DNA of 63,346 nucleotides, the filler included, from Folioceros fuciformis (Eukaryota), in assembly GCA_049999805.1 (NCBI GenBank). It is 7 parts of 7 records of this genome, joined end to end, with 100 filler letters (N's around TTAATTAATTAA, not from the genome) between each part and the next. Parts side by side here need not be neighbours in the genome. Positions count along the whole stretch, not along the records: positions 1 to 25,745 come from JBNGIO010005735.1; 6 more parts are not named here. One strand, written 5' to 3'. Each line of letters opens with the position of its first letter. The stretch's first letter is position 1. This document shows, in pieces, positions 8,701 through 61,822 of the stretch. Below the pieces are notes generated by a model. It saw nothing but the letters and a program-made list of their open reading frames with translations, was not told the DNA's origin and ran no database searches. The position numbers and the translations under genes were made by a program.

Positions 8701-10906
8701 TGGGCAGCTAGGTCAATCTTCTCCTTTTCAGCCATGTTCATGGCCTCAAAATAAATTGAGAAAACTCTGGTCCACTCCTGCAACTTGGTTGGGCTACGGT
8801 CTTGACAGCTTAGAACTTCAAACTTGGTGCGCTTCCTCAAGTCAACATTCCTAGAAGGCTCGTGTCCCTTATCAAACAGTCAGCTCTCTTTGACAGTAAG
8901 CTCAGCCACGGTTTAGGTCTGTGGTCTTGCATGTCTGGCTATTTGCAGCCTCCTTGCAATTTCAGCTATTTTGGGGTCCTCTTGTTCTTCTGGTGCTAGG
9001 GCTTGGACTCTGAATCTCAAGCTGTCATTGATGGCACCGGTGTGCTTGTTGCAGGGACAACATATTTGCTTGGAGTCGCAACTGGAGTGACCAGCTCGTT
9101 GCTGGCTTCAGCTCTCGTTGCCTTGGATCCATTGTGTACAGGAATGGGGGGCTCGGGCCTATGGCTCTCCTACCCTGATGCAGGTCTTTGTAAAGCTTGG
9201 TGGGTTTAGGGTTTAGGGTGCTATCTCCTGCTCTTAGTGCTATCTCCTGTTCGACGTTTTGGACACTAGCTCGGCCATCATTTTCTTGTGTTGGTTTCTT
9301 TGTTCTTGCAGAGAACGATGCAACACGAGCTGAGCCTCAACCTCGATCCGAGCTTGGTATGTTGTTGTGTCCATGGTTTCTGTCATACGCACTTCGGTAC
9401 CTCTTGTTTTCGGAATCCGTTCCTCAGATATGTGTGCTCCAACGGACGGGCCGATGTCGGGCAAGTGCACCGCAGGTTCAGGAATGGAATTCCTCGTCGA
9501 AGTTGCTTTCTTGCGACGCTTGACTGTTTGCTCTTGTGGAGGTTCGGTGGGTTGCGATTTCTACGGTCACGCTGGTCTCTTTTTCACTCCACCTCTGGCA
9601 GACAATCCACCGTGAGTCCTCCCTGCACCGCTTGAGGGAGCTAATGGCTTGGCTCCAGTGTTTCGTGTCACTTCATCCATCTGCTTCGTTCTCCTTCGCA
9701 ACCTGGAAGAAGCCCTACTCTCTTCCAGGTGCCAGTAATTGACGGTAAGTCAAAACTGATCTTAATTTAAGGACTAAGATGATTGCTCAACAAAGATCGC
9801 ACTCCGGCAACTTGAGCCGTGCAATGAGGTTGGTTTACATTCGCGTCACGTAGATCGCACTCCAGCGAACTTGGACTGGTGCAATGGCGCAATTGTTGCG
9901 TTTGCCTCGAAGTCGACCAATCTGAAGCATCACAATGCCTCTTGCGTCGTCAAAGGCCTTTCGGATGCACAACCACGAGGTGTCGGGGCTCACCAAGAAC
10001 CCACTCCTCTCTGCTCCTGCTGAATGTCGCGTCGCCCGTATCAGCAAGATGCGCTGAAAGACGCACTTGGGGGACTGGTGACATTCCCAACGGCATCACC
10101 ACTCGCTCGGCTTGACTTGGCACTCCTTTTCCCGCCCCCTCTGCGTTCTTTCTCGCACCACTTCTTATCTTTCCCTTCTTTGAACTTGTGCGGCACCCAC
10201 TTCACACACAACTAGCCATCCCTGTTCTCGCTCTTCACCAATCTTGGTTCATCATCTTAAAGACCAAGGATTTGGACTCTGCGGCTTTCTTCTGATGAAG
10301 TCATGGGCTCCAAATTCTCCTCACACTGGATACCAAAACCTTGGACAACTCAAAAAGCACGAGCACCTGTTTTGCCGACTTGTACCCACTCCTCAACTGT
10401 CTACTACGAGCTCCCACGCCTACGCTTGCGAATCCAATCAAGGACCGCCCCATCCTCCGGAGACATCGCTGCGAACCATCCGTTAGACTCTGATACCAGA
10501 TGTTACCGCACACGGCGGCACGAGCGTGTCGGGAGACCGAAGAAGAGCCCCCGTTCACATCTTGGCGCACATACCTAGGACCCGCGGCCCGCGTCTGATT
10601 TGGGTTCTTGGCTGGGATTTACTAACCATGGTCCAGTTAGCTAACCTAGTGTAGCCCTATCTATGGTTAGTTCCATTCCTAGCTAGCTCTTCTATCTGTA
10701 GTCCTCCACCTCGTCGCTCTTCTAGCTGCAGTCCTCCATCTCGTCGCTCTTCTAGCTGCAGTCCTCCATNNNNNNNNNNTAGCTGCAGTCCTCCATCTCG
10801 TCGCTCTTCTAGCTGCAGTCCTCCATATTGTCGGTGGCTGCTCCTCTATGCACTGATCAGGTGCGATACTCATCCTTGGATCACAGTCTAGTTAGCTACC
10901 GTGACA
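5760..10906 (-). mobile_element. Decayed Ty3/gypsy LTR retrotransposon, integrase interrupted by the copia LTR
   Basis: 5' LTR 10501-10906 (TGTTAC...GTGACA), PBS TGGTATCAGAG at ~10488-10498. Gag knuckle CFICAGKDHISHGC, degenerate protease FLINEGSSH, RT (MCIDYRGLN, VFVDDILIYS), RNase H TDASNYAMGAVL, integrase (CLPCQ, DFVTSLP, ISDRDSKF, LPLVEFAYNS). Gypsy order RT-RH-IN. Confidence 0.93.
10682..10826. repeat. 30-bp tandem repeat in the gypsy LTR (spans a 10-N gap)
   Basis: Unit CTAGCTGCAGTCCTCCATCTCGTCGCTCTT, at least ~4 copies; true number hidden by the gap at 10770-10779. Confidence 0.9.
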
Positions 10907-12630: not shown

Positions 12631-15600
12631 ATGGAAGTGGATGCATCTATGTTGGGGGAGGCTGAGGTCACACCTTTGTTGGGCCCTTCGCAAGCTCTCC
12701 AGGTTCTTTCTGGGCCTCGCCCGGCTCCCACTTTTAGACTGGTGAGTCACTTCACAGAAAAGCGGGAGGATGGTCCCGGGCCTCGGTGTGGTCACACTTT
12801 GACGGCGGTTGCGGCTATTGGAGAGGAGGGAAGACCCGGATACATTGGCCCTCGATTAATCCTTTTCGGTGGAGCGACAGCTTTGGAGGGAAACACTGCT
12901 GCTGGACCTCAGACTTCGTCTGGAAACGCCGGCATTAGTAAAATGCTACCCTTGCGTCGTTTCTTCTCCTGGTCTATTTTCTGTGACTTAGCTGCTTTAG
13001 TGCCTTAAACAGCTATAGATTGTGGTATCTGCCATAGCTATCATGCTCAGAACTTTGTATATCATCGTTGGGGTCAAGTTAATTTGTTTCTTTAGGATAT
13101 CATTATCTGAAACTGATATCGTTTTCAGCTTTCCAAACTAACGCCTAGCCTAATACGTGTATGAGATATGTGTGAATCCCGTGCAATGCCTCTCTTTTTG
13201 AATTTAAGACCTGTGCTTCATTTGCAGGATTAGCAGGGGCTACAGCCGATGTACATTGTTTTGATGTGCAGTCACAGAAATGGTCAAGGTGTGTCTCTTG
13301 GTGTTGGACGTTTTGTCAGGTTTATGTAATGTTGAAGGCAGTCTCGTGTGATAAAGTTGTAGCTTTTCCGAGAATTGTACATCCTGAGTCTCCTGTCACT
13401 ACCAGTTCAGGGATTGTGTTATATCTTGGTTGCCAGCATGTGTTTTGAGCATACGTTAATGAATTGAGTTTGCAGACTATTACCCATAGGAGACCCTCCT
13501 TCTCCTCGAGCGGCTCATGCAGCCACAGCTGTAGGGACAATGGTTGTGATCCAGGTTGGTGCTCTGATGTGTGTGGTGGGACGATGGGCGTGCATTACAT
13601 GTTCTAGAAGTTCTGGGACTGTTTTCCATTCGGAGTGCAATCCTTTGAATGAGAATCTCTGCAGAAATGGGGCTGGATTTGTCCATTTTGTGCAGCTTCC
13701 TGTGGCCACCTGTGTCAAATACAGGGTTACCATTGAAGCTGCTGTGTAGGGCTTGCATCTGGATGTAGGTGGACTCAATGAACCTCTACAGACTTCGGCC
13801 TTGTCTGAATCTCTTCGTATGCACTTTTGTTTCAGGGTGGAATAGGTCCTGCTGGCCTCTCCACAGATGATCTTCATGTCTTGGACTTGACTCAAGCTCG
13901 ACCCAGATGGCATAGGTCAGGAGATTGCTCGGTTCCAGGTTATTTCTCGTTAAGTTCCAGTTCAAAACGCATCTGATTTGGGTTTGGCTGAACTGCAGGG
14001 TGGTTGTGCAAGGACCAGGACCAGGACCTCGATATGGTCATGTCATGGCTTTGGTTGGTCAGCGATTCCTTCTTTCTATAAGTGGAAATGATGGTCTGTC
14101 ATTCTATTACTCGTCCCCACTGTGTTTTACGCAGGTCCAGGTTTTCCTCACTGCTTGTATACTTTGAGTATTGAACTGTGCATTTACAATATTGCACAGG
14201 GAAGCGGCCTCTTGCTGATGTCTGGGCCCTTGACACTGCGGCAAAACCATATGAATGGAGAAAGTTGGAACCGGAAGGGGAGGGCCCTCCACCATGCATG
14301 TACGATGTGTTAAGTTGCTTTTTTGCGAACCTCATGTGGATTGAAGTTTAGTGTATCTTCCTTTTCCAATCTGCAAGTAGCGTTGGTTTGTTTCTTTGCA
14401 GGTATGCAACAGCCAGCGCTCGTTCAGATGGTCTTCTTCTGCTGTGCGGTGGCAGGGATGCAAGTAGTGTGGTAAGGAATTGTTGAGAGTCTTGCTGGCC
14501 TCCCACTCGTAGGTATACTTCAGGCAGTGGTAGTGTCTAATCACTTGGTCACTTTTTATCAGCAACGTGGGCTCATAATCACATCAATGTTAGTCTTAGC
14601 CATGAAGTGTCTGCAATAGGTGTTGCTGCCGGCTTTCCTGATATTAACTGTTTGCTGAATGTGACAAGTGTCACCACCAGCACAGGATATTTCAAGCGAG
14701 TTTTCCTAGTACTTGAGGTGGAGAGGTCTGATTTACATTGTAGAGTCCTGTTTGAACTTGTTGTGTAATGAGAATGTGTTCGCCCTGTAGCCCCTTGCGA
14801 GTGCTTACGGGCTTGCAAAGCACCGAGATGGACGATGGGAATGGGCTATGGCACCTGGAGTGTCACCATCACCCCGCTATCAGCATGCAGCGGTGAGCAA
14901 GGCTCTGTTCAACACCTATTACGATAATGTGTTTTTTTGTATCCTTCAGTCACGCCATTAGCTTTTCGTGATTGCTACATACATGTACGTACAGTAGTAG
15001 TTAATTTCTTCGTTGTGTCCATCTCAGGTTTTCGTGCATACAAGGCTGCATGTATCTGGTGGTGCACTGGGCGGTGGACGCATGGTGGAGGATTCTTCTA
15101 GTGTTGCAGGTTTAAACCTTGCACTTCAATGGTGGCCTGTGTCTGTGACAAATCCAGTGGGATAAGGATGCTAAAGTTGTCACGTTATTGTAGTCCTAGA
15201 TACAACAGCGGGTGTCTGGTGTGACCGGAAGTCTGTGGTTACATCCCCCCGCACTGGGAGCTTCAGTGCGGATATGGCCGGGGGAGAAGCATCTGTGGAG
15301 CTCACTAGACGATGCCGACATGCAGCAGCTGCAGTCGGGGAATTGATTTTCATGTATGGTGGTCTGAGAGGAGGTAATCCCCACGCTTGCAGTTCGCTAT
15401 CGTCTGGTCTCATGCTAGGATGTATTGTCAGAGGTACATTGTCACCATCTTAACAGTGTGATTGCCAGCAGGGGTCCTTCTAGATGACTTGCTCGTGGCT
15501 GAAGATGGGTTAACAGTGCCCTCAGCATCAGCACCTGGCGCATTGCTGACATTGTCTGATGACCAAAGGTCTCAAGCTTTGCTTAGAGAACGCCCTGATT

Positions 15601-18600
15601 TAAGTTTGAACAATCACGAAGTGGAGGACCCTGCCCAGGGTGCAATCGTCCTGGGCATTCCTGTCACAACCCCTGTGAATGGGGACAATTCTATGGACAT
15701 AAATACTGATCATGCATACCAACGGGGACGGCGGTAATCACGCAACCTTGCATGTGTCTGTTCACACCGTAAGTTGGTTCTTGTTTCTTGACTTAGATGG
15801 TCATCTGGACTTTCAGGAGTGTGGGTGCCGTTGATTCTCTGGTTGAAGCATCTGCGGCAGAAGCAGAAGCCATAAGTGCTGCATTGGCTGCTGCTGTTGT
15901 GCGGCAAAATGATGAGGAAGCGGAGAAGCTCACTCCAGACCGTGACCATTCTGAAGAGTCTACCGCCAGCGGAAAACAATTCACACAGTCGTCTGTCACT
16001 GGTTTCAATGTTCATCCTCCACCATTGAACAGCACTCAGATGCCTTCTCCGGGAGTCCGGCTACATCATCGTGCCGTAAGTGTTGCCTACATACTTTGAT
16101 ATGCCTCCGGAAGAGTAGCTGCAGGAGTTTCCTGATTATGAATCATAAGATGGTACACTAGCATTTGATGTGTGATGGATGGTCAAACCATGGTTGGTTG
16201 GATGGAATTGGATATGCAAGATCTGGTGAATGAGGACTTGCTGCTCTATGTGGCAAATCATGTCTCCACGACACTTTGTTTACAATCAGTTTGCTGGTAA
16301 AATGGTCTGACAGTACATTTTCCTTCTGTCTGTCCAGGTTGTTGTTGCTGCAGAGTCCGGGGGAGCTTTGGGAGGTCTCGTTAGGCAACTTTCCATTGAT
16401 CAGTTTGAGAACGAGGGGCGCAGAGTAAGCTATGGAACACCAGATAATGGCAGTGCTGCTCGACGGCTACTTGACAGGCAAACATCGATCAGTGGGGTCC
16501 AGAAGAAGGTGAAAATCTTCCATTTGAATGCAGTCGTGTCGTATCAGAGGACTGAATACAATCAGTTCCTCAGTACTCTTGAAAGCTTTTGTTCCTGCAG
16601 GTGCTTTCTCAATTGCTGAAACCACGAGGATGGAAGCCACCCGTGAAACGACAGTTCTTTATGGACTGCAGCGAAATTGCAGAGCTCTGCAATGTCGCAG
16701 AACGGCTCTTTGCACGTGAGCCAAGTGTTTTACAGATAAAGGCCCCTGTGAAAATCTTTGGCGACTTGCATGGACAGTTTGGAGATCTCATGCGACTATT
16801 TGATGAGTATGGTTCACCCTCAACAGCCGGGGACATAACGTAAGTCACTCAAAGTGAGTGGTAAACAACTTGTTGCTGTGTCCCCACTCAAGCAGACTTG
16901 CCCGAGATAGTGTGGCTTTACAAACTGATCAGCGCTGCATCAAATTCAGAACTTTTTCTTTAGACATGTTTTCTTGTTTGGAAATGTCGGTTGTCTGGTA
17001 AGAGGCAAGCGTTCATTTCTCTGAGCTGAATATGTAGTTTATTTTTTGCAGGTATATAGATTACCTTTTCCTTGGCGACTATGTAGACCGTGGCCAACAT
17101 AGTTTGGAAACCATAACGCTTTTACTTGCACTCAAGGTTTGTCCTGAGTCAGCTAGTCTCCTTATTGTGTGTGTTTTACTTGTGGTCTGTTGGGCATACA
17201 ATCATTCTTCTGTGTTGTCTGCTGGCAGATAGAGTACCCGAAGAACGTGCACTTGATCCGTGGCAATCATGAGGCTGCAGATATCAATGCTCTCTTCGGT
17301 TTCCGCATTGAATGTATTGAACGCATGGTTTGTGCAAACCCTCAGCCAGGAGTATCCTGTGCAAATGCTTTTGCCCTTGTTCGCCTAGTTATGGAGCTCT
17401 TTGGTGTCAACTTGTTAGGGGGAGAGAGATGGAATCTGGGCATGGCAACGAATAAACAACCTCTTCAACTGGTTGCCTCTGGCGGCATTGATAGAGAAGA
17501 AGATCATTTGCATGCATGGGGGGATAGGAAGATCTATCAATCACGTAGAGCAGATTGAAGCACTGCAACGGCCTATAACTATGGAAGCGGGGTCTGTTGT
17601 GCTCATGGACCTTCTTTGGTGAGATTTGAAGTTTTTTTAGCATGGGTAGTGTGTTGCATCATTCTTCAGATGGATGTCCCATCCTGGTCTCCATGGGCCA
17701 TCTAACCTGGTCATCCTGCTTTGCCAGGTCTGATCCAACAGAAAATGACAGTGTAGAAGGACTACGTCCAAATGCAAGAGGGCCGGGCCTTGTGACTTTT
17801 GGGGTGGAAGCAATCAACTTCAAACCTTCCAGTTGTGATGCATTTGACATTTCTAAAGCCATTCTGGCCATGTTCCTAATGCATGGCTGTGGTGTTTCAG
17901 CCAGACAGGGTTCTAGAGTTCTGCAAGCAGAATGACTTGCAATTAATTGTAAGAGCGCATGAGTGTGTCATGGATGGTTTTGAACGTTTCGCTCAGGGCC
18001 ACCTGATCACCCTTTTTTCTGCAACGAATTACTGTGGTGAGAAATTCTGGAAATTCTGCAATGCTTAGAGTTTTCGACTGGGTGTGGATTGGCATGTGGG
18101 GAATGAGAACAAGGGTGCATAGGGACGTGGTCATTTGTTGGTCCTCGCCACTATTTGGGGGTGCCCATCCCAGGAAGCTCATGTAGCGAAGAGTTAAATG
18201 AAAATGGATCTTGCAGGTACTGCCAATAATGCAGGTGCAATACTCGTCCTTGGTAGAGACCTGGTTGTGGTGCCAAAGCTGATCCACCCTCTACCTCCTG
18301 CCATTATTTCTCCAGAGTCTTCTCCTGAACGCCATGTTGAAGACACTTGGATGCAGGTTGGATTCTCTGTGCAAGGGTTGACGGAATTCCTTGTTTGCTG
18401 GTTATTGTTTCTTTTGTTCTGCGCAGAGTTTGATAAGCCGTGTGCTCTTACCCATATGCTTTGAGCCTACATTGGACTTTGGGACCTCTTCGACTGTCAG
18501 GATTTTGTTTGATGATAGTCTGCCAGTGTCGTTTGGGCTTTATCGTCTTGAAGGCTCTTGACTTTTCACAGTGGCTTACAACTGCCCTTCTTGCTTTTAG

Positions 18601-18719: not shown

Positions 18720-19929
18720 TTCACTGTGCCTATCCTTGGTGGTACAACTGTTGTGTTTTATGTGTCTGCTTTTGTAGAGCAAAAGTTTCAGGAATGGTTT
18801 CTGCCTTTAGATGTCAAGGGTTGTTCTTCCATCAGCCTTAGAATGTAGAATTTCCGGCATCATCAGGAATGAAAGAATCTTATGATAAGTCTCCAAGGCA
18901 GCCTTTTGTGGTAAACTGCCTTCATCTTGGGAATAAATTTTTCACACAATTGTGCCCCGCTAACTAAACAAGGTCTGGCAACCGGGGCAGTTGCAGGGCC
19001 TTGCAGAGTAACATGGAAACTGTATAAGTGTGCATGGAAGGCGTTTGGGATCGTATTCCCTAAACAGGGATTTTTGGAAAGAGAGTCTAGAGGATCAAAA
19101 CACAGTGCCCTCACAAAGGATCTTTGGGAAGATGGTTTGGAAGACAGCAGATTCTTGTCTGATCAAGGACTGATCTTCAGATTCACGTGTGTGGTGATAA
19201 GGGCATGGGCGAGGAAATCTTTGCCTGGATTTCTCGGCACATGCTGGTGAGAGCATAAGCAAGGAAATCTTTGCCTGGACTTGTCGCCGCATGGTGGTCA
19301 GGGCATATGGTTGAGGTTCGGGTCTGTGTCTACACTGTGGCTTGTGAAGGCAGATCAATATTTGGCACCTCGAGCGGAACAACCTGCAGAGTCCCACGTC
19401 AAAGGTGCCTTCTGACAGTGTGCACTGTTGCTTCTATCACTGGCGTCTTTTTATGAAAGGATTTAAATGTGTGTTGCACTAACTTCATCTGCTAGAGAAG
19501 TTCAAGTCAGGCCTACATTTGAAGAGGTCTTTCAGCTGGTCTCGATTTCGAAAGTTTGGGAACTGACGCCATGTGAATCTTGTGGGTGTAAAATTGTCGA
19601 AGTTCCATTTTTAAGTATAATATAATAATACTACATTGAATTAGATAAAATAAGCTATTTCCAGGGCAAGATTTCATCCGCTAGCTGTTTGCAGAAATTA
19701 TGTTCTAGTGACCTCTTTTGTCTACTTGTGCACAAGGTAGTAAAGTGTGATTGACCATGAAATGGAAGTTGTTGGACCTTTGTAAGTAGACACATCAAAC
19801 CCATGGTTTGGCAGAACGTCAAACGTTTATCCTGGGTTGCTTTACCCTCTTTTTTGGGTACAACGAATTTTTCGTCTCCTCTACTTTCTAATAAGGTCTC
19901 TAGTCTATCTTAGTCTGTGATAGGATCGA

Positions 19930-21080
19930 GACCAGGATTTGTGAGCGCAATTAGCTGGTGGAGGGGCGCGCAGGGCTATATCAGCAACGGTGTTGAATCC
20001 TTTCCAGAGGCAAATATAGAAGTAGAGCTTGTGAGGAGGCAAACGCTTCTGCTGAACTCGAGCCTAAAAGTACCGTGTTTCACTAAGTGGCAGATGAAGA
20101 TAAAACTCTTCACCATTTGCGGAATATGCAACACATCACTTAACAGGACAGAACCATCTTCAAGGGTAAAGGTAACACGAAAGGACAATCTTTTCAAGAG
20201 TGAAAGTGACTGTGTCCACATTGGTCAGGTCAGAGTCCGTCGTTGAGAAGGACAAAACGAAACGGAATCAGAAAATGTATGGCGATGGCAGTAGATAGCA
20301 GAAACGTAATCAGAAAATGTAACGAAACGGAATCAGAAAATGTATGGCGAAGAAAATGTATAGCAGAAACGTAATCAGAAAATGTATGGCGATGGCAGTA
20401 GATACCTGCAGAGGCAGCTGAGTCCAATAGCCTAGAGGTCTTGTATTTGAAAGCTACCAAGTCATATTGTGAGGGCAATGTCAACCAACTTCAGCTCGGA
20501 GGTTCAGGCCATATTGGTAGACTTGGATGGATGACATTGCTCTCCAGCTTTCTTCTTGCGGTAGTCAAGCTCCCCATGACACCAATTACAAATACCAAGC
20601 TTGTAGCGAGAACCACCAAGCTCGGAGAATAAAGGGCCATGACAAGGAGCCGGAGAAAGTGCAATGAAGAGCATTTTATTAGGTAGAGGAGGACGATGTC
20701 CTTGCCAAGGTGATTGTCATTGACAGCCTTTGCTCATGAACATAACTCTTTTGCTCATGAACATAACTCTTTTGCCATCATGCTTCGAAGTGTTGGTGTT
20801 GAATATGAAAGCCTCCTCATGTAAAATTGTGCCAGTAATTTCGGAGATGGAAATGTTGGGTATGTGGCTAGCCTTCACCGCTTCATGAGCCTCTTGAACA
20901 ATGCTGTCGTGCACCCATAGGCAAAACTCCACGTTGTGACTCTCGAACAATGGCGAAGGATGGTGGATTGAGCAAAGGCACGAACACGAACCTACACCGA
21001 AGGAATGATTGGACTCACGGGCTCCAAGGGGGAACCTTACCGGTTTGGCGGCTACGTCCCATCCTTTAACGGATTCCATC
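19930..21080 (-). mobile_element. Heavily deleted Ty1/copia gag-protease remnant
   Basis: SISEITGTILHEEA (gag), LLDSAAS (protease site), VTFTLEDGSVLLSDVLHIP (post-protease region). Confidence 0.7.
20259..20404. repeat. Irregular tandem repeat, four copies of GAAACGKAATCAGAAAATGTA
   Basis: Core at ~20259, ~20301, ~20324 and ~20366, derived from codons just after the protease active site. A separate 21-bp duplication lies at ~20730-20772. Confidence 0.85.
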
Positions 21081-22085
21081 CGGGACGACGAAGTGGATTA
21101 GGCGAGGGTGAGCGGAGGCAAGGGGTACGAGCTGGGGTCACATAGTGACAAATACGCAAAGTGATGCTCTTGTCCAGGTGCTTACCTCGGGACGTTCCTA
21201 TCTGGTCATTGCAGCAAGGCTTACCGAGCTCGTCCCTTGAACGTCAGACTTTCCACAATCCCTCAAGAGGGATTTGGACTTAGCCTAGGGAGTGCAAACA
21301 CTTGAGGAGTGCAACTAGCGGAGGGCGGGACTCTCTTGATGACAAGAGGCTGGAAACGCCCTACACGGGTGGCGAGTGAGCAAAAGTGAGGTGGAAGAGA
21401 ATGGAGAGTTGGGACACAAACTTAGCACAATCCGAGGCCCCTACTAGGATAACAGGTCCGTACTTTATAGCAGAAGTGGGCTCCTAGCCCGAGAGACATC
21501 TATAAATGCAAAAAGTATTCTAAGACATTAGTAGGCTAGTCTTGCCAAACAATAGCTAGCTCATCTTAATGAGCCGACGGCGGAGGAGGAATTGGCAGGA
21601 GATCCCTGTGTCGGTGAGGTGGGTCCCAGAGAAGATTTTGCCCCTCCAATTGCTATTGGAAAATGGGCAGAACCGAATTGAGGACGGATTGAGGAGACCG
21701 GACTTACAGCTAGAGGTCCAGTGAGGAAGGTCTAGCGGCGGGGTAGTCAGGGCTGCTTGGCATCGTTCGTCCGCCCATAGGTGTCGGTTTTGTCAACACC
21801 GCCTCCGCTGTGTTGGTCAGGACCCGGAGTATCTCCCCAGGAAGAAGGCATGACTGTCATCCAACTATTGGATGGCATCAACTACCATCCTACGAAGGGT
21901 CTTGTACTCCGGTTGCCATCACGCTTCCGGCAGCTCAGCGTGCTATGCTGTGGAGATGTTGATGTGCCGACGGAGTTCTTCCAGGGCAGCGGAGGTGCCA
22001 GTTGCCGATTCCCGGAGACGGAGAGTGGACAGCGCCTAGGTCTGAGCCCGCAGTAACTCATGTTGGTCCTCCTGGACCTCGTAGT

Positions 22086-25000
22086 TGTTAGATTAATAAC
22101 TATCAAGGGTTGAGTAATCCTAGCTACTTTAGGGTTACAACTTTATTTGTATATAACTCTTTGTTCCATTATTGAATATGCTTTTTGCCTTTATTATCAA
22201 CTACTTGCCTTTGCATGCTAGCTTGCTTAGCTAAGTGCATGAGGCCTTTTATTTACATGGTATCAGAGCCTGATGCCTGATCTTTGTTGCTTGTGCAATG
22301 CCTCGTAGAAGGGAATCCCGCACATTACCTACCTCTCGTGAGGTGTTTCCATGCAATCACAGAGGAGCGCAATGGATTCCCCCAACATGCAATGGACCTT
22401 GGAATCAATATCTTGATGAGTATCGTACCCAAATCCGTGCGCATTGGAAGAGGCAAGCACAAGAACAAAGACAGTATTGCAATCAACTGAGAGATTGCAA
22501 GGGGGAGTCATCATACTATCATCTTGGTCAAAATTCTAGACTACAATCGAATTCTAGACTTCAGAGAACTCGAAGGGATTCATCCATTTATGACACTTTG
22601 CAAAATTCCAAATTAAAGCAAAAATTCTTGAATTTGGATGATGCAATATCAGACGAGGAGAATGATAATGATTTCCCATATTCAAATGAATCATTGTCAA
22701 AATTGATTAATTATCACTATGGTAGACTTGATATGCGAATCTCTCAATTGATTGCACGACAAGATCTTTTTCTTACAGCCTTACATAACCTGGAGAAGAA
22801 ATTGCAACATGGCATGAATCAATATAGCAAGGATATCAGTGATGGTGTGTCTGCTACCCAGCACTTAATCCAATTGTTTATGCAACATTCAGATTTGAAG
22901 AAATTACAAAAATTGGGCCAATTAGGGCAGAGCCCTGAAGATATTACTCTATGACTTCCGTTGTGCGCAAAGGGGGGCATTGCAGTGGCGCGCAGTGCTT
23001 GGGCGCTCACTACTGTCATGCTGGAGCAAGGGATTGAGTGATTTTGCCTGAGATATGATGGAATTCATTCAATTTCTTCTTTGCTGCCAATCGGCAATGA
23101 AAACGGTTATTTGGCTCCTCCCCTGCCATATGAAAAATCCCATGAACACTTTTATTAGTTTTTAGGGCATGTTTCAGAACTTTGGATAGTTTTCCTAATT
23201 AGGGCACCCTTCATATTCTTTTTAGACAATCACTTAGATCTGAATGGTCACACATTACCATACAGATTTTGACACACCTTCTTGTTAGTTGGTAATTCCT
23301 TGTTGATTCCTTCCCCCGTTGCACTTCCCTTCATCCTCCTGCAAGCACACAGCCATGGCCACACCTACTTTCACATATGATCTTAAGGATAAAGACAGAT
23401 TTAACGGCACTAGGTACGACATATGGAGTGTTAGGATGAAATAGACCTTGCTTGCTCGTGGAGTTTGGAAGGTGGTTGATGGATCTGATCCAGATCCAGG
23501 CACTCCCTCTAATCCTACAATAGCAAGAGGTACTGTTACCCAAGCACAGAAGGATACATGGGATAATCTGAATAGGATTGCCATGGCCTTGCTTGTCAAT
23601 GGGCTTGATTCAGATCTTGTCCCCGAAGTAGAGTTCCTCACCAATACCAAAGCAATTTGGGATCAACTTGTAGGAACTTACAAAGTTGAAACCATGATGA
23701 GCTTATGCATAGTAAGGCAGCAATTTTATACCTTGCGTATGAAGGAAGGAGATTCTATTGCAGCATTCACTAGTCGATTTTGGCATTTGCATGCCCACAT
23801 GACTGCTCTTTGCACAACTATGCGAGAGGTGGATGCGGTGGCTCAGCTTCTCACCAGCCTACCTCCCAGTTACCAAACATTTGTCACCACATAGAACGGT
23901 CCCATTCGAACTGCTAGTCAGAATGTCAAGCTCACAGATGTCATTGGGGCTCTTTACCAAGAGGAGATGAGCCACCAGATGTCATCAAGGGGACAGCGTT
24001 CTAAAACCGACAAAGTATTTTCAACAAGAGGAGGTCATTTCAACATAAGAGGTAGAGGGAGAGGTCAATCACCTGCTCAACGTAACATTACCAATCCTTC
24101 TGCTTCAAAGAGACAAGGTAACTATAATTGGTGTGGGACTCCTTGGCATTGGGCCAAAGAGTGTAGAAAGAAGAAATCCAAGGAGCCTCAGCGGGCAACA
24201 CCTCGGCCTGCAACTGCACACGCCACATCACAATCCAGAGATAAGGTTTTAGAACCTTAGTCTAGTAAGCCAGTAGTGAAAATCTTGATAGTTTGCTTGA
24301 GCATTCACACGAGTGAGGTAGACAGTTGGTACCTTGATAGTGTTGCTACAGCTCACATTTGTCGTGATGAGTCCCACTTCACTAGCTTGACGCTTACTAG
24401 TATTTCTGAAAAAGTTTTTTTAGGTGATGAATCCAGCACCACAATTTGCACATACATGGTAGAGGAGTTTGTAAGTTCCCACTTCATGATGATACCATCT
24501 TAGTTTTACCAGATGTTCTCTGTGCCTAAGATGGCTAAAATCTTATGTCACTTAGTAGGATAATGCAGATGAAAGATTTGATACTTACAGTCTCAGGAAC
24601 CACTTGTTGCTTTGTCCATCGCAGCTCCCCTTCTCGCTGCATTTTTCAAGCTGTCCTAGAATCAAAATTGTATCGTCTAGATATCTCTTGCATCCATTGT
24701 GAACAAGTTAATTCTACAACTGTTGGTCCCTTGACAATAGCCCAACAGGCCAGACTTTGGCACGCCCGCCTAGGGCATGCAAATCGCTCTAAACTTGTTG
24801 ATCTATCTAAGCAGGACTGTTACAAGGAGCCCCTCCCTCGCTGCTTTAAAGATCTGCCAATTTGTGAAGTATGTGCTTTGGCAAAACAGTGGGAGACACT
24901 CTTTCCTACAGCTCCTGCATTTCGATCCACAGCAGTTTTGGAGTTAGTACATGCCGACATCAGTGGGAGACTTCAAAAAAAATCTCTTGGTGGAGCACAA

Positions 25001-25200
25001 TATTACTTTACCCTTCCTCATGACTACAGTAGATATACATGGACTTACCCTATGGAGCACAAGAGTGACACCTTTCTTTTCTTTCAAGATTGGTTGCTGG
25101 TTGTTCAAAGGCAAACTGGTTGCATGCTGAAGTTGTTCTGCACTGACAATGGAGGGGAATTCACGATCTTCGCCTTTGAGCATTTCCTGGAGACACAAGG
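22086..25200 (+). mobile_element. Ty1/copia element, 5' half: short LTR (22086-22257), PBS (22258-22270), 1.1-kb leader with extra ORF, decayed gag-PR-IN
   Basis: TGTTAG...TTTACA with TATATAA at ~22150, then perfect TGGTATCAGAGCC. Gag ATG 23355 (DRFNGTRYDIWSVRM), knuckle remnant WCGTPWHWAKEC, WYLDS, LWHARLGH, ELVHAD, TDNGGEF. Cut at 25201 by another LTR. The LTR 5' boundary is inferred. Confidence 0.9.
22298..22954 (+). CDS. Retrotransposon accessory ORF upstream of gag, 218 aa, unknown function
   Basis: ATG 28 nt after the PBS; uninterrupted for 218 codons in AT-rich DNA; different frame from gag; heptad-like helical C-terminal half. Confidence 0.7.
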   Translation: MPRRRESRTLPTSREVFPCNHRGAQWIPPTCNGPWNQYLDEYRTQIRAHWKRQAQEQRQYCNQLRDCKGESSYYHLGQNSRLQSNSRLQRTRRDSSIYDTLQNSKLKQKFLNLDDAISDEENDNDFPYSNESLSKLINYHYGRLDMRISQLIARQDLFLTALHNLEKKLQHGMNQYSKDISDGVSATQHLIQLFMQHSDLKKLQKLGQLGQSPEDITL

Positions 25201-25745
25201 TGTGGGGGAAAATATTGCACCCGGGGGTGCTACGAGGTCCACACAAACCCTCTTTGTCGTTATAGCACTGGAATTCGATCCCAAGGGAATGATTTGTGTC
25301 AAATAACATAGGTTTCCTCTAAAAGTCAGTTACTACCCAAGGTCAGTCTTACTCATCTACCGCGCACCTTCCGCCTATTCGGCTACCTTGACCCTTTCGC
25401 GACTCGACTACCACCGTCGCCTCCTCGACTACCTGATGGACCTACTCGGCTATCGGGGTGCGTGCCACTCCAACTACCGACTCTCGGCTACTTTGTTGCC
25501 CCTATGGCTACCGCTACGCTCGGCTACTCTCATTGCCCTTCCACAACGGTCGCCCAACCGGCAACCTCGGTGAGGTCCACTCTCTCTCTCTCTCTCATGT
25601 TCCTCATGCAGCAACAAAGCAACCAATTCATCCCAACTTGGGAACTCAACTCTCACTAAGATTGATGTGTCAAAAGACTTGTACTCCTTGCCAAGTCCGT
25701 TCAGAGTAACTGCAACCATGTCATCTTCCGTCACACTTGCACCGA
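25201..25745 (-). mobile_element. Nested LTR end plus copia gag fragment
   Basis: Host integrase frame breaks at TGTGGGGGAAAATATTGC. Minus-strand VTLNGLGKEYKSFDTSI...WDELVALLLHEE is a copia gag segment. Confidence 0.7.
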
Positions 25746-25845
25746 NNNNNNNNNNNNNNNNNNNNNNNNNNNNNNNNNNNNNNNNNNNNTTAATTAATTA
25801 ANNNNNNNNNNNNNNNNNNNNNNNNNNNNNNNNNNNNNNNNNNNN
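25746..25845. other. Artificial contig linker N-TTAATTAATTAA-N (also 40021-40140, 43400-43499, 53711-53810, 59098-59197, 61723-61822)
   Basis: Identical six-frame-stop 12-mer centred in N runs, six times. Confidence 0.97.
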
Positions 25846-28127
25846 GCTGAGGCAGTAGTTGCAGCTACCTATATTCTGAATAGGATTGTCACTTCTGCCC
25901 TCCTTGGGCGTACCCCATATGAAGCTTTTTGGGGTCGCAAGCCCAGTCTTCTTCATCTCCGGGTCTTTGGGTCACCTGTGTTTGCATTCATCCCTGAAGC
26001 CAAGAGGGGGAAATTAGATGCAAGGTCAAAGCCTCTCATTTTTCTTGGCTATTCAAAAGAATCCAAAGCTTATAAATTGTTTGACCCCCAGACTCACAAG
26101 GTGACCTTGGCTAGAAGTGTTACCTTTAAGGAGATTACTTCTCCGCAGCCTCCGTCTTCCACCATTCCTTTGGGTCTTGTAGACTCGTTAGAAGATGAAT
26201 TTGAGGATGTGAGTGCTCCTATTCAGGCGGTGTTTCCACAGACAAATGGAGCCTTGGATGGTGAGTAGTTACCTATATCTCTGCCTCCTGAACCAGTGGG
26301 AGATTGTGTTCCTGCCCCAGATGTTCAAGATGATGTTCAATTTACTTCTTCTCATGTGTCTTCGGATGAGGAGGTTGCTGGCAATGATGACCTTGTTGCA
26401 GATCCAGCTCCTAGATATTCCTTGAGGGAGCGTCGCCCAAGAGACCAATGGCTTGAGCAATCTTATCAATCTATTGACTTCAGGAAGCCTTCATCCGATG
26501 TGGCTGCTATTTCAATCCCTAAAGTCTGACCTGATCCTCAGTATTATCGTGAGGCTGTGGAGGGACTTGATGGAGAGCATTGGAAGAAGTCTATTGCCAA
26601 TGAATACAGTTCATTGATCAAGAACAACACTTGGGAGCTTGCTGTCTTACCACATGGAAGAAAGCCCATGACATGTAAGTGGGTATTTAAAACAAAACTT
26701 AAAGCAGATGGGACCATTGCAAGATATAAATCTCCGCTGGTTGCCCGTGGCTTTAGTCAAATTCCAGGTATAGATTATGGGGATACCTTCAACCCAGTTG
26801 TGAAGCCCCCTTCTATTTGAATGCTCTTGGCTATGGCAGCAGAGTTCGATTTGGAACTTCACCAGATGGACGTTTGTAATGCTTTTCTTCATGGAGAGTT
26901 GGAGGAAGTTCTCTACATGACACAACCAGAGGGTTTTGTAAATAAGCAGTATCCGAATAAAGTATGCAAGTTATTGAAGACAATTTATGGCTTGAAGCAA
27001 AGTCCACGTGCATGGTTCAAGCGCATAATGAAATTTCTCAAGCAATCTGGATTTTTTCAATCACCTGTGGACTCAAATGTTTTTTATTTATCCAAGGGTG
27101 CTTTGTTTGTGATCTTGGCTTTGTATGTTAACGACGCTATCTTGTTGAGTAATAGTCTTCAGCAGCTGGACAAGGTTAAGGATCTCCTGCGGTCAGAATT
27201 TGAGATGACTAATCAGGGCCCTCTCCTGTTTTGTTTGGGAGTTCAAATCTTAAGAGATAGGCAGCTTGGTACTATTGTGCTCCATCAAACTAAGTATTTG
27301 AAGGAGATACTAACCAAGTTTCATCTTGAAGCTGCTTGTTCTGCTGCCACCCCTTCTGCAGTGGGAGAAAAGTTGACCATGGAGCAGTCTCCTCAGGCTG
27401 CGACGGAGCAAGAGGATATGTCCTTGGTCCCTTATGCAGCAGCGGTTGGTTGTCTTATTTTTTGTGCTAATTGGACCAGACCTGATATTTGCTATGCTGT
27501 TAGTATGGTCTCGCAGTTTCTTAAGAATCCTGGTAGAACACATTGGCAAGCTGTGAAGAGAATCTATAGGTACCTTAAAGGTACCTTGTCTTACGGCCTG
27601 CAATATACTTCAAGTGGGAGGAAGCAGTTTTCTCTCACGTCCTTTGGGGATGCTGATTGGGCTTCCGATGCTAACTCCCGACGTAGCCTCTCTGCTTATG
27701 TGTGTATCCTAGCATATGGAGCCGTGAATTGGTCTTGTAAGAAATAGGCTTCACTTGCTCTATCCTCGACGGAAGCTGAGTATAAAGCTTTAACGGATGC
27801 ATGCAAAGAGATTGAGTGGGAGCGGCAATACCTTGATTCCATCAAGCTAACACAATCAGGTGCTACTCCTTTGTTTTGTGATAATATGTCTGCAATTGAG
27901 TTAGTGGCAAATCCAAGGTTTATGCACGGACTAAACATATTGAAATATATCATCATTATATACGCGATGTGGCGGAACATGGTTTAGCAAAAGTTCAATA
28001 TGTGAAAACTGAAGATAATTTAGCTGACCTTCTTACAAAAGGTCTTCCACAACCAAAACATTTTCAACATCTTGCTTCTTTGGGTCTTAGGGAGTTTGAG
28101 CTCCCTGTTCCTAATTCTAAACCCTGA
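25846..28127 (+). mobile_element. Ty1/copia pol (IN C-terminus, RT, RNase H), decayed
   Basis: HLRVFG, KLDARS, FLGYS, NNTWELA, CKWVFK, QMDVCNAFLHG, YGLKQSPRAW, LYVND (degenerate YVDD), DADWASD, SSTEAEY, LADLLTK; stop ~28127. Confidence 0.95.
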
Positions 28128-28506
28128 TCTATTACACAAAGGAGTGTGAAGCGGATCTGACCTAAGTGAGCAAAATTGATCTAAGCCTGCCTAGCTAGAT
28201 TACAACTTCACTCTCCTAAGTTCCTCTGGATCAAGGTGCCTGCAGGAGTGTTGGACACACACAGAAAACAAATGGGTGCTGTTAGTTCAGTGGATGAAGC
28301 TACATGGTTACAAATCCAATCGTGGACTTTGGCAGCAACAGAGTTAGGAGAGAAATTCATCACTTAGAATCACAGATCACACACAACAACAAACAAACAG
28401 GGCACAAGACAACGGGATAGCAACATATCTGCATTCAATGTTCACAGGTTTGAAGCAGCCATGCACCTATCTCAGGAGGTTATGCTCAACGCAGCCATCA
28501 TGCTAC

Positions 28507-29148
28507 TCAACTTCTGTGAAAGGACAGAGACGAACACAGAGCCAGAGACAGGAAATTGTCAGCGTACCCTGCTTCTTGCTCTTTCTCGTTGATGATGTCT
28601 CTAATTTCTTCACAGGTGAGCGGTCTGTGGGAAGCGCTGGTGTTTGGTGCTGAGATGCTTGTCAGAAGGCCAGCAAGCTCTTTTGCCACAGCTTGAGTTC
28701 GGAGCAGCAAGTGTGAGAGCTCTCTGCAACTTCTCAGAGGTGTCCTACAGATGCAACAGATGCCAAGAATCAGCGGTCGTGGGCCAACCGGCTGTGGTGC
28801 CTTCTTCTCTTGTTGGCGCTGCTGATTGCTGCTTCCCCCCCCCCCCTTTTCTGGCAGTGATGTTGGCGGGCGTCCGAGGCTGGTTGGCTTTGGCGTTCAA
28901 GGCTGCTGGGTACGCTGTCCACGATGCCAGAGGCCTTCATGCTTGCCTCCCGCCTGTCCTTTGCCCTCCGAGTGGAAATGGTACCAGGGATTGGTGTGCG
29001 GGCCATCCTCTTGCACGATGCTTGGAATTGGAGTCCGGTGTGTGGCGTGGGGGTGCCGAGGTCGATCGCGGTGGTGGTTGATGCATGTTCTACACCGTGG
29101 GCGCACCTTTGAACTGTGGAGAGTGCACGTTGGTACCCGTCTTGCCAT
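28507..29148 (-). pseudogene. Antisense accessory ORF in the region before a copia-type PPT (213 codons, one internal TGA)
   Basis: Track ORFs 28897..29148 and 28507..28710 are in the same frame (offset 438 nt). The only stop between them is TGA at 28897-28899. Confidence 0.5.
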
Positions 29149-29294
29149 CGCAAGGTTCTGGTGTGTCAGGCGTGTGCGTGCGAAAAGTTGTTGTGCCGCA
29201 TGTGGCCTTAATTGGTGGTTATCACGTGCATACGGGTGTATACGTAGTTATACGTGTATTTGTGGTTCCTATCCCTTTCTAACCTCGTTAGGTT

Positions 29295-29455
29295 AAGTGG
29301 GAGTGTTAAGGTGGAATAGTTTTCTTTTAACCTAACTCGGTGGGTTAGTCTAACTTAACTAGGGTTAGACCAGGCCAAGTATATAAACATACACACAAAT
29401 ACCTTTTTATTATTCAATATACAATTTTTGATATAAGCTTCCGCTTTTCCAAACA
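29295..29455 (+). mobile_element. Polypurine tract and short (~152 bp) 3' LTR
   Basis: AAGTGGGAG then TGTTAAG at 29304, TATATAAA at ~29380, end ...CCAAACA at 29455; another copia pol resumes afterwards. Confidence 0.75.
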
Positions 29456-30320
29456 ATTCAAAAAGTCGCTGATTCTAATTTTGCTTCAGTCTTTCCAGAT
29501 GAAGTCAGTTTTTATGATGATGGAGGAACTTCTTCGGATTGCGAGGGGGACAACACCAATGTACATGCTACTTCAGCTTCTCCCAGCAATACTGATGACT
29601 TAGTTGATAGCCCAAGTACCCAAGATGAGGTTGATGAACCTTCACCAATTGCTGAGACACTTGATGCACAAGTTGCTGAACTTGAACAGAACGCTGTTTT
29701 AGATTTTAATCCTGAAGAATTTTCTCTTAGACGGTCTGCTCGTCTTAGAAGACCAATGCATGAGTGGATAGAACCTCCCTTTCAAGGGGGTCTGGTTGTT
29801 TCAGATGCCAGTCTAGCCTCAGTGCTAAGTGTTTCATCTTCCTTAGGTGAGCCAGCCACATATACAGAAGCCATTGAAGGTCCAGAGTTTGTTTTTTGGA
29901 AAACTGCCATAGAATCTAAATATCAGTCATTGCTAAAAAATAACACTTGGAAATTAGTGGACCTTCCTAAGGGCAGAAAGCCTGTAGAATGCAAATGGGT
30001 CTTTAAGAAAAAACTCAATACTAATGGTACAGTAGGAAGGTACAAAGCACGTCCAGTTGCTAAGGGCTATAGCCAGATTCCTGGACTTGATTACAATGAA
30101 ACATTTGCACCTGTAGTTAAGTCTACCTCTGTACAAATTCTTCTAGCCATAACTGTCCATTACAACCTTCTTGTGCATCAACTAGATGTAAAAACAGCCT
30201 TTTTGAATGGTTTGCTTGAAGAGGACATATATATGTGTCAACCAGAAGGGTTCATGGTTCATAAGGATAAGGTCTGTAAGCTTTTGAAGACTTTACATGG
30301 CCTTAAACAAGCTTTGAGAG
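29456..30320 (+). mobile_element. Ty1/copia IN-RT linker and N-terminal RT fragment
   Basis: LRRSARLRRP, EPATYTEA, NNTWKLV, CKWVFK, QLDVKTAFLNG, HGLKQA, then abrupt loss of homology. Confidence 0.9.
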
Positions 30321-31599
30321 CATCAAGAGAATCACGAGGATCGCCCAGCAAGAAGCGGACCAAGATAGGAGAAGCATCTGCAGAGACGCGTCTTATGGCA
30401 CGGCCATCACCACCAGCCGACATGAAACAGGTCCTGCAAAGCTATAGGGTGAGATGGGCTGGTATTTCTGAGATTTCGTGGCACTTGTCTGTAGATGAAG
30501 GGGACTCCATGTCTTCTTATTGCACCGACCCTATCCCGAAAGATAACAACTTTGATCTGAGCAGGGGAGAAGAGGAGGAGGTGAGCAACTGGTCGTCACT
30601 CCAATAGCAGCACCAGTCTGTCGTCACCAATGGGGCTCCGGCCATAATCGTTCAGCAGCAAGTGATTTGATTGCTCGCTTACTCTTCATCCACCTATTGT
30701 TGAATAATCTATTGTCATTGTGACTCTAATATAGGCTACTAATAAAAAAAAATCTTGTGTCATAGGAAACTGGTCATACAAGGCCCTCTGTTGAAGCTCC
30801 TATGGCCAAGAAAATTGAAGAGGGGGAAATTTCATTAGGAATAAAGTGTCCTTCTTCATGGTCTTAGGTTGACGAACTGTAAAGGGATTATTGTGAATCA
30901 AGGACAGCTGCCAAGAATCAGGGAGGGGGACTACATATTTTGAGAATAATTGTAGAAGTTTGTTAGTCCTAAGCCCTCCATATGTTGATAGTGTTTAGTT
31001 TTGGTGGTAGGGTCAACAGGTGTAGGGTTGGCTCATTAATATTGACGGCAAGACATGTTGGGAAAGTCTAAACTAGTGGTTGGTAATAACTGGCTAGACT
31101 AGTTGACTTATTAAAAGAATAATTGTCCTGCAAGAGACAGGTAAGATAAGAGAGAGAGAGGCTTCTATATGATAGAGTGAGCCTGTAGGATTTAGATTGT
31201 CATGCTTACTCTTGTGGTCTATCCATGCTTAGTTCAAGACAAGCACCGTGTTGCCAGCTGTGTAGTCACGCAACATCTGGTAGGATCATGAGGTGCGATA
31301 GCCAAGGTTGAGGGGTTTGCCCTTATGTCAAACGTGAAATTTTGGGATATGGGATGGGCTCCTATCCTACTGTTTTGAGTGTTTTGCCCAAAGAGTGGTT
31401 TTGTTTGTTCCTTCTTTTCTCTTTTGTGTCAGTTTGAAACCTGTTTTGTGTTCCTTGGTCTTTGGTGGTCAATCTACTCATCAGTCATACCTATGCATGT
31501 CGTAGGTGTCAAAATGAAGTAATGCAATAAAATATTGATATATTGATTTGTGCATAAAGCATCTTACAATGTCATTCACATAAAGCTATATATATATAC

Positions 31600-32900
31600 A
31601 TCCCCTCTAAGATAGATAAAATACATACCTACTTACCAGTAGGTATTTCCTATAATTGAAAAAGAGATGGAAAGTCCCATCTACTCCAAAGATTGGAGGA
31701 ACAACTTGAATAGGACCAAAGGCAAAAAAGGGTACTAGCCCCATCAAATATCATTCTCAACAACTACCAAAATGATGTAGAATAACAAAAGGCCTACCTA
31801 CCACTGGTGCCAAAGAAGCCGCTTGACCTATGTTTGTTGTTGTTCTAAAAACCGCATTGGCCAATGCTTGTTGCAAAGCAATGGATACCCATTGTTGAAA
31901 GAAAGCCACCACAGAGGAAAGAGGGAGAACACCATTCTTATTGCTATCATAAACCTTGGCGCACTACTTGATAAACCTTGAAAAGTCCTTGCTCATAGCC
32001 CCATGAGTCTCAAGAGCAAGGGGGATGAAAGTATGCCCATCGTGCAAGGTAGAATACTTATGGACTTTAGCACTTGCAAAACCCTCTGCCGCCTAGACAG
32101 GGAGGTTGATGATGACGTCCTCACAAATCGAATCCCTAGTGGGATCAGTAACAATCACATTAGCAATACAAACCTGTTCCCCTTAGTGAAAAAAAGGTCG
32201 GCTCTAAGTAAAACCCTATTGCACAAAGTATATGGACGCTCCCTTTATGGAAGAAACCCACACTCCCTAGCCATTGAGAACATGACATCCCGAATTGCAT
32301 CATGAGTGGTAATGCGGTGCCCCCCAACGGGACAACATGACAAATGGGACCCTATATCGACAGTGGCAACCCCACAACTACATGTAGAGAGAGAAAAACC
32401 CAAGGGGTGGGCCAAACCTAAGTGAAATCTCATTGTTGTGGCAAAAGTTGCTAGTGTGATTCGAAACGCTTGGATGCAAGGTTGAGCCACAAGCCAAGAG
32501 CCCACTTCTTTACCTGAACAAGATCAAATACGAGCTTGAGAAGACCTAGGGATGCATGAGTTTGAAAGATGAGCTCTTAGTGCTTGGCCATTTTGCTTTT
32601 CTAGGAGGAAGGCTAGGAGACCCTTCAACCCTTCTCTAGAAAAGGAGGTGAAAGGAGATAGAGCCTCACGAGCCTCCAAAGGTAGATAATCCCTCGCTTG
32701 CTTGAGAGATACCTACAAAGCAAAAATGCCCTCATCAACACCTGAGATAAAACTTTCAAGAATAGGGGAATCTTGAAGCAAAAAACGAGAGACCAAAATT
32801 GGAGATGAGAGGGCTCAGCTACCGAGAAAGGCAGTTGGGGCAAAGGCCTCCATGGCCAAAAGAAAAACCCCTCCAAAGGCTATCGGCAAGGAAGCCTGCT
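31600..32900 (-). mobile_element. 3' remnant of a restriction-like-endonuclease non-LTR retrotransposon (CRE-like)
   Basis: GSWLVAQP...F...MRFHLG...CSCG...D..GSHLSCC..GG.RITTHDAIRD (CCHC finger plus RHD motif), then ...E......LRADL and terminal FFQQWVSIALQQALANAV, as in CRE-clade C-termini. Confidence 0.8.
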
Positions 32901-52377: not shown

Positions 52378-52432
52378 CTCTACTACTATCGAGAGGAAGG
52401 GAAGTAGAGAGGAAAACAAACCCTAAAACCCG

Positions 52433-59097: not shown

Positions 59098-59197
59098 NNN
59101 NNNNNNNNNNNNNNNNNNNNNNNNNNNNNNNNNNNNNNNNNTTAATTAATTAANNNNNNNNNNNNNNNNNNNNNNNNNNNNNNNNNNNNNNNNNNNN

Positions 59198-61722: not shown

Positions 61723-61822
61723 NNNNNNNNNNNNNNNNNNNNNNNNNNNNNNNNNNNNNNNNNNNNTTAATTAATTAANNNNNNNNNNNNNNNNNNNNNN
61801 NNNNNNNNNNNNNNNNNNNNNN

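Follow-up and report, generated by a model that had tools for sequence, protein, structure and literature searches.

We analysed a stretch of 63,346 nt from Folioceros fuciformis (GenBank assembly GCA_049999805.1), made of seven parts of seven records joined end to end with filler letters and hereafter called the window. [quoted passage not shown] With moderate confidence, ORF218 is read as a real or recently real protein-coding 5' additional ORF (aORF), or eORF-5'F, of an old multi-copy Ty1/copia subfamily. It is probably lineage-specific and analogous to the 5' ORFs of the Ogre and Tekay elements.

Position of ORF218 between the PBS and gag

ORF218 occupies positions 22298..22954 of the plus strand (218 codons and a TGA stop) and contains no known domain; from stop to stop the frame measures 226 codons (22274..22954). 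Its ATG lies 28 nt past the end of the PBS (22270), and it is read in a different frame from gag (22298 leaves a remainder of 2 on division by three, and the gag ATG at 23355 a remainder of 0). It is a separate sense ORF outside the polyprotein, and the 400 nt between it and gag are stop-bearing. A preliminary description of this DNA had placed a 218-aa ORF 28 nt after the PBS in a frame other than that of gag, uninterrupted in AT-rich DNA, and both its coordinates and its frames proved correct. The leader has a GC content of 0.41 and is long: gag lies 1085 nt past the end of the PBS, and the leader as analysed below measures 1097 nt.

Four short upstream ORFs (uORFs; 22215..22308, plus strand), with ATGs at 22215, 22239, 22257 and 22273 and lengths of 21, 13, 7 and 11 codons, precede or overlap the start of ORF218. 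The AUG of ORF218 is the fifth after the presumed start site, and 31 AUGs lie ahead of the gag AUG. The rest of the leader (22955..23354, plus strand) is apparently non-coding, with a codon score of at most -0.07 bits per codon in all three frames. Its last part is a pyrimidine-rich run closed by AG, immediately ahead of the gag ATG, with a pyrimidine/AG site at 23345. A consensus scan found no good splice donor in the leader, the sole match to AG/GTAAGT at two or fewer mismatches being at 23290.

Coding potential of ORF218

When the 1097-nt leader was shuffled with its dinucleotides preserved, an open stretch of at least 226 codons arose in 1 of 5000 shuffles and one of 150 codons in 60 of 5000. 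The other five frames over the ORF218 span carry 9-19 stops each. Codon usage was scored with a model trained on 3531 in-frame codons from other copia ORFs in the window. ORF218 scored +0.206 bits per codon, as against -0.20 and -0.41 for its other two frames, and the element's own gag and pol pieces scored 0.11-0.31, while the remaining leader and the long terminal repeat (LTR) were negative in every frame. Stop-free Markov controls with the same dinucleotide make-up had a mean of 0.077 ± 0.041 and reached the observed value in 1 of 2000 cases; 78 unannotated ORFs (at least 80 codons, GC content of 0.5 or less) had a mean of 0.052 ± 0.07, compared with 0.195 for the 226-codon frame. By length and codon usage, two independent measures, ORF218 is unlikely to be a chance ORF, although a small residual likelihood of chance comes with a finding picked post hoc from a very large scan.

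Past the TGA, the frame of ORF218 meets three more stops before a fourth at 23378-23380. The preliminary description had reported these stops correctly and had seen in them a possible trace of an ancestral ORF of about 360 aa. That extension is not supported, for the post-stop stretch scores -0.07 bits per codon and shows no coding-like usage.

Within ORF218 there is a spaced direct repeat of 18 nt, in frame (22532..22563, plus strand), in which two copies of AATTCTAGACT[A/T]CA encode NSRLQS and NSRLQR. Tandem Repeats Finder reported no array in 22000-23500 at a minimum score of 30; therefore, ORF218 is not a tandem-repeat artefact. The ORF also contains an inverted repeat (22478-22496 / 22738-22756, plus strand) with 19-nt arms that are 95% complementary and 241 nt apart; an equally good 19-nt inverted match occurred in 4 of 300 shuffles. 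The folding z-score of the ORF218 RNA was -4.07 against 20 shuffles and -2.76 against 30, and the leader may also act at the RNA level. Rfam gave no match in 20000-25700. No RNA run was listed as containing the stretch, and a run that we guess to be RNA (X4) yielded only three pieces of 34-57 nt at less than 90% likeness, none of them within ORF218. A miniature inverted-repeat transposable element bounded by the inverted repeat was considered and set aside, since the contigs described below begin at 22685-22693 and not at the arms, and shuffles match the repeat at the frequency just given.

Contigs over ORF218 and its leader

Evidence for further copies came from Logan contigs of three DNA runs of Folioceros fuciformis with at least 80% likeness to the stretch. 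A non-identical contig over 22692-23044 differs by 34 other letters and 3 gap letters, and non-identical contigs of run X3 over 22685-22881, 22693-22881 and 22865-23023 have no gaps, their differences being dominated by C>T and G>A, which makes the identities in this run unreliable. In the non-ORF leader, a diverged contig over 23011-23357 shows 35 other letters and 22 gap letters. The pieces within ORF218 thus hold 0 or 3 gap letters, gaps that are few or neutral to the reading frame, versus 22 in the non-ORF leader piece. Six variant places are listed inside ORF218, all within 22622-22741 and each in 1-4 contigs; four of the six are synonymous in the ORF218 frame and none in either other frame. 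These contigs point to one diverged copy at the least, and apparently to two or more, with at least the 3' part of ORF218 and the downstream leader.

The element that carries ORF218

The DNA of the window is of plant origin and consists mostly of truncated LTR retrotransposons. The element that carries ORF218 has a Ty1/copia (Pseudoviridae) body on the plus strand, in which Pfam recognises Retrotran_gag_2 (23583-23891), gag_pre-integrs and rve (24545-25303), SH3_retrovirus (25798-26265) and RVT_2 (26821-27744) in copia order. The 3' end of the presumed 5' LTR (22066..22257, plus strand) reads ...TTTACA, and a TATATAA lies inside it at 22150-22156. The start of this LTR is bounded only roughly, at about 21100-21600. 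It is limited upstream by a minus-strand copia fragment (19976-20221; a weak Pol_BBD match, E 0.003), and Logan contigs show break points at 21484-21513 and variable-length joints at 21513-22064. A short tandem array with a 65-nt unit (20256-20427; about 2.6 copies, 71-100% identical) occupies part of the interval from the minus-strand fragment to the presumed 5' LTR.

The PBS, TGGTATCAGAGCC (22258..22270, plus strand), directly adjoins the LTR-like end. The preliminary description had called it a perfect tRNA-Met-type PBS, and TGGTATCAGAGC indeed has a single exact match in the window, at 22258-22269, which the C at 22270 extends to 13 nt. We take the site to be complementary to the 3' end of the initiator tRNA-Met. 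PBS-like sites with one or two mismatches occur at six other places in the window, and at least seven matches at up to two mismatches were found in 29 of 100 shuffles. A full tRNA-Met PBS is the commonest type among copia elements (PMC6317226).

The gag ATG at 23355 stands in a good context (GCCATGG). The gag region (Retrotran_gag_2; 23355..24260, plus strand) is interrupted by premature TAG codons at 23442, 23892 and 24258, and pol (24261..28127, plus strand), with its protease region, integrase, reverse transcriptase (RT) and RNase H region, by six further premature stops and at least three frameshifts before its natural stop (TGA, 28125-28127). N runs at 25746-25789 and 25802-25845 inside pol hide part of the integrase region. 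The decay of gag-pol that the preliminary description had noticed is thus confirmed, with nine premature in-frame stops (6 TAG, 2 TGA, 1 TAA) and at least three frameshifts in total. TAG or TGA makes up eight of the nine (23442, 23892, 24258, 24501, 26266, 26527, 26818 and 27745), and at 23892 four contigs of each of runs X1-X3 have CAG instead of TAG. The pattern of premature stops fits C-to-T decay of a methylated element.

Downstream of pol, a purine run AAAGGAG followed by TGTGAAGCGG... (28138..28162, plus strand) marks the expected start of the 3' LTR. The sequence at this point is unique in the window, and no likeness to the 5' LTR follows it. When 20401-22300 was compared with the whole window by BLAST, it matched only itself; sensitive BLAST and Smith-Waterman searches against 27500-32000 found no 3' LTR, and the comparison of 19000-22257 with 28128-29600 did not rise above shuffles. 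Self-BLAST of the window likewise gave no LTR pair for this element, and two matching LTRs with a target-site duplication were not found in the window. The copy is old, broken, and truncated or rearranged; it is a dead relic.

The predicted protein

The predicted product of ORF218 has a mass of 25.8 kDa, an isoelectric point (pI) of 9.1 and a grand average of hydropathy (GRAVY) of -1.07. Residues 1-70 (MPRRRESR...) are strongly basic and arginine-rich (pI 9.7), and an acidic patch, DEENDNDFPY, lies at residues 119-127. Both features had been noted in the preliminary description, together with a heptad-like segment, which is not supported, 16% of shuffles of the same residues scoring as well. 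The C-terminal third (residues 131-218) is less hydrophilic, with a GRAVY of -0.47. The highest mean hydropathy over 18 residues is 0.44, and no transmembrane-like hydrophobic stretch is evident. The protein shows no similarity to the element's own gag (BLASTP, E 14). In addition, the Pfam domains that mark the extra-ORF proteins of Ogre (ORF1), Retand and Athila, namely the plant mobile domain (PF10536), Transposase_28 (PF04195) and Athila ORF-1 (PF03078), have no match in ORF218 even at E ≤10.

Observations that weigh against a coding ORF in a multi-copy subfamily

Several observations weigh against this reading, and the first of them concern relatives. A word-indexed protein search at near length in 5.8 billion clustered proteins gave no match among 405 candidates. 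HMMER against 1.84 billion representatives gave one match only, to a repetitive zinc-ribbon protein in which the same 25 residues matched six times, and this was rejected as spurious. Pfam showed no family at E ≤0.1 and only noise at E ≤10, and the PDB sequences held no solved relative (best E 1.5). Scans of metagenome contigs and of viral contigs produced 76 and 6 pattern matches, respectively, of which none was confirmed, and tblastn and blastn found no second copy of ORF218 in the window. Control pieces of the same element help to place these results. A 149-aa gag piece, searched in 'longer' mode, was likewise without any database match, and an RT piece matched 4856 proteins, with 34-50% identity among the 120 matches listed. 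Because the databases contain no close kin of the element's RT or gag, the blank ORF218 searches say little on conservation within the lineage; an accessory protein of such a lineage, if fast-evolving, should not be expected to surface in them.

The copy evidence has weak points as well. All runs that contain the stretch derive from a single sample, which probably also gave rise to the assembly. C>T accounts for three of the four synonymous changes, and the six variant places listed stand among more than 1000. A gag relative (a 704-nt contig in run X1 and 565 nt in run X2) aligns from 23340 only, and the remaining 298 nt of the 704-nt contig do not align to the leader at 80% likeness; not all relatives share the leader at this level. 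For the 5' two-thirds of ORF218 there is only summed depth, which is not a copy number. Furthermore, since no 3' LTR exists at the locus, the integrity of the element is not demonstrable.

The intactness of ORF218 beside a broken gag-pol, which the preliminary description had pointed out, is unremarkable on calculation. In ORF218, a single transition would turn any of 29 codons (19 CAA, 4 CAG, 3 TGG and 3 CGA) into a stop. At the decay rate of gag-pol, the probability that it would acquire no stop is 0.07 when all stops are pooled and 0.16 if TAA is given a rate of its own, apart from TAG and TGA, and the probability of its being intact is about 0.1 once frameshifts are allowed for. The difference can be reconciled with neutral decay and offers no evidence of selection or domestication. 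Because the copy is a dead relic, ORF218 has stayed intact by luck and not through host selection. The proposal of a copia lineage with a 5' accessory protein keeps its other supports, namely a true copia body, a sense position between the PBS and gag, coding-like usage and more than one copy, and loses the argument from intactness, which is not significant.

Finally, ORF218, with its 218 codons (226 from stop to stop), falls under the threshold of at least 250 codons used by Neumann et al. (2019) in their survey of extra ORFs (eORFs) (PMC6317226). This is a survey cut-off and not a biological criterion, and ORFs like ORF218 may have been overlooked because they lie below it.

Alternative explanations

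Among the alternatives, a neutral passenger survives best, although we regard it as unlikely. Here, host sequence or sequence of another element would have been transduced or recombined into the leader of the subfamily, would have travelled along with that subfamily while being of no service to the element, and the open frame would be a leftover of the captured gene. The unusual length of the leader (1085 nt between the end of the PBS and gag) and the gag relative with an unalignable leader are in keeping with such an event; plant LTR retrotransposons are known to transduce sequence, Bs1 being an instance (PMC7264820); and coding-like codon usage suits a captured gene equally well. However, a captured conserved plant gene should have shown itself, and no host-like homologue was found in the 1.84 billion representatives or in Pfam. 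In addition, the segment occurs in more than one diverged copy, which the same review takes as a mark of an aORF and not of a one-off transduction. One-off capture, which the preliminary description had named as an outcome that would speak against it, is unlikely because non-identical contigs cover at least 22685-23044 and 23011-23357.

We judge it improbable that the frame is open by chance in a leader RNA that is structured and non-coding. The ORF was picked post hoc from a very large scan, so that a per-leader frequency of about 1e-4 to 1e-5 would still give some such frames genome-wide; ORF218 has no homologues that we could find; and stable folding (z -2.8 to -4.1) together with the inverted repeat suggests that a function at the RNA level could explain some of the constraint. 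Against this stand a codon usage as coding-like as that of the element's gag and RT, equalled by only 1 of 2000 stop-free controls, the absence of any stop in the ORF218 frame versus 9-19 in the other five, and the listed variants, which are mostly synonymous in the ORF218 frame only.

A chimeric locus, in which LTR, PBS and ORF218 come from another, perhaps non-autonomous, element and were joined to the copia body by recombination, by nested insertion with deletion or by misassembly, is about as improbable. In its favour, truncated pieces of copia and gypsy elements make up the window like a mosaic, and no 3' LTR resembling the 5' flank occurs there. Against it, diverged contigs cover 22692-23044 and 23011-23357 and a further contig starts from 23340, so that the ORF218 end, the leader and the gag start are apparently adjacent in relatives, even if none of the listed contigs spans them all; the type and orientation of the PBS suit the copia body.

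Proposed expression and function

If ORF218 is a coding 5' aORF, it would head the LTR-driven genomic RNA as its first long cistron, reached after the four short uORFs, and its product would be a very hydrophilic, basic protein of 25.8 kDa. The arginine-rich N-terminus may serve in nucleic-acid binding, as a nuclear localisation signal (NLS), or both, and the less hydrophilic C-terminal third in folding or self-association. The protein would then serve the element as an accessory factor. By analogy with what has been discussed for other aORFs, the role that we would prefer is that of a basic nucleic-acid-binding or nuclear accessory protein. More specific roles are guesses; RNA chaperoning or packaging, or nuclear import, is a doubtful possibility, and modulation of silencing is distinctly unlikely. 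If the family was active with such a leader, gag-pol, with 31 AUGs ahead of its own, would need non-canonical expression, for which re-initiation, internal entry and the splicing out of the leader may be considered.

Taken together, the data allow a tentative picture, held with somewhat less confidence than the coding status itself, of a copia lineage with its own 5' accessory gene, gained independently of the gypsy elements Ogre and Tekay, in which an orphan basic protein is made before gag and gag-pol is expressed non-canonically past the 31 AUGs. If this is true, ORF218 encodes a new retrotransposon accessory factor without detectable relatives, and, if it is conserved in the copia family, a leader-encoded protein would have been gained convergently in both superfamilies. 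With its 218 aa, the product is a compact candidate for RNA-binding, nuclear-import or anti-silencing activity. Given a single decayed copy and indirect family evidence, its value is that of a lead for a genome-wide check.

Other elements in the window

A Ty3/gypsy element on the minus strand (6009-8650) contains RVT_1, RT_RNaseH_2 and Integrase_H2C2, and a CCHC-type motif (CFICAGKDHISHGC) was read by eye in its ORF at 7950-8408. A tRNA-Met-type PBS with one mismatch, TGGTATCAGAGT (10487-10498, minus strand), lies about 1.8 kb upstream of the first gag-like ORF; because of this distance, the element also has a long leader, in which several minus-strand ORFs of 100 aa show no Pfam match. On the plus strand at 15462-16096, a pair of neighbouring ORFs, 91 and 100 codons long, have coding-like scores of 0.25-0.28 bits per codon without a Pfam match and could be what is left of some unrecognised element or gene.

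Two copies of one copia family lie in opposite orientation about 8 kb apart, forming an inverted duplication of 1244 nt with 92.8% identity (43500-44743, plus strand, and 52432-53675, minus strand) over gag-protease-integrase. The one host gene in the window is a TORTIFOLIA1-like N-terminal coding stretch (57567-59150, plus strand; PF24714, E 1e-91) with a GC content of about 0.72. It adjoins a copia gag-protease-integrase body (59146-61271, plus strand), and N runs flank the junction; the arrangement suggests a retrotransposon insertion in or next to the host gene. N runs occur at 25746-25845, 40041-40140, 43400-43499, 53711-53810, 59098-59197, 61723-61822 and other places. They take the form of 44-nt pairs around 12 unmasked bases, three 100-nt runs and one 10-nt run; of the pairs, one falls within pol of the ORF218 element (25746-25845) and a second where a copia gag ORF begins.

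Comparison with known additional ORFs

That plant LTR retrotransposons carry additional ORFs is established, and Vicient and Casacuberta (2020) ask of an aORF that it be present in all or most copies of a family, with conservation like that of gag-pol (PMC7264820). In the gypsy group, Ogre elements carry a sense ORF upstream of gag, such as the 1527-bp ORF of a Medicago Ogre family (PMC2533021). The preliminary description had regarded such an ORF as a hallmark of Ogre; this is true of Ogre, but not of Ogre alone, as Tekay chromoviruses, including RIRE3, RIRE8, Retrosat-2 and sunflower Tekay group 2, also carry 5' aORFs (PMC11728184). The Tekay aORF proteins are reported to be biased in composition and for the most part disordered, and to have an NLS and a few helices; they show no amino-acid similarity between species, and the sunflower Tekay 5' aORF is conserved in 500 of 523 elements (PMC11728184).

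Among copia elements the position is less familiar. Neumann et al. (2019) defined the eORF-5'F class and reported eORFs in 582 Ty1/copia and 3372 Ty3/gypsy elements, those of copia falling into 45 unrelated groups; in the parts of the main text available to us, only the SIRE 3'-forward eORF is highlighted for copia (PMC6317226). ORF218 shares the concept of these copia eORFs and likewise lies outside tandem repeats. Keyword searches of the open-access literature, which are not proof of absence, brought up no copia family described as conserving an ORF that lies between the PBS and gag. The 5' ORFs described so far belong to Ty3/gypsy elements; the kind of add-on gene is known, and at this position in copia it is rarely described.

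The env-like ORF of SIRE (Sirevirus) resembles ORF218 in being an extra sense ORF in a Ty1/copia element. In contrast to ORF218, which precedes gag and has no evident transmembrane-like stretch, the SIRE ORF lies 3' of pol. Maize Bs1 also carries foreign coding sequence in its internal region in sense orientation; however, ORF218 has no similarity to any host protein found, and its segment occurs in more than one diverged copy.

The closest likeness is to the 5' ORFs of Ogre and Tekay, which, like ORF218, are in sense orientation between the 5' LTR or PBS and gag and have no known domain. The basic, arginine-rich N-terminus and strong hydrophilicity of ORF218 recall the NLS-bearing, biased and mostly disordered Tekay proteins, and the absence of any detectable homologue of ORF218 parallels the dissimilarity of the Tekay proteins between species (PMC11728184). 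The host elements differ, being gypsy for Ogre and Tekay and Ty1/copia for ORF218, and ORF218 is smaller, with 218 codons against about 400 aa in sunflower Tekay 13-2 and 1527 bp in the Medicago Ogre ORF (PMC2533021). Conservation throughout the family has been shown for Tekay, whereas ORF218 is known from one full copy and partial contigs. The locus fits no sequence family, and by analogy with these systems it appears to work like a 5' aORF.

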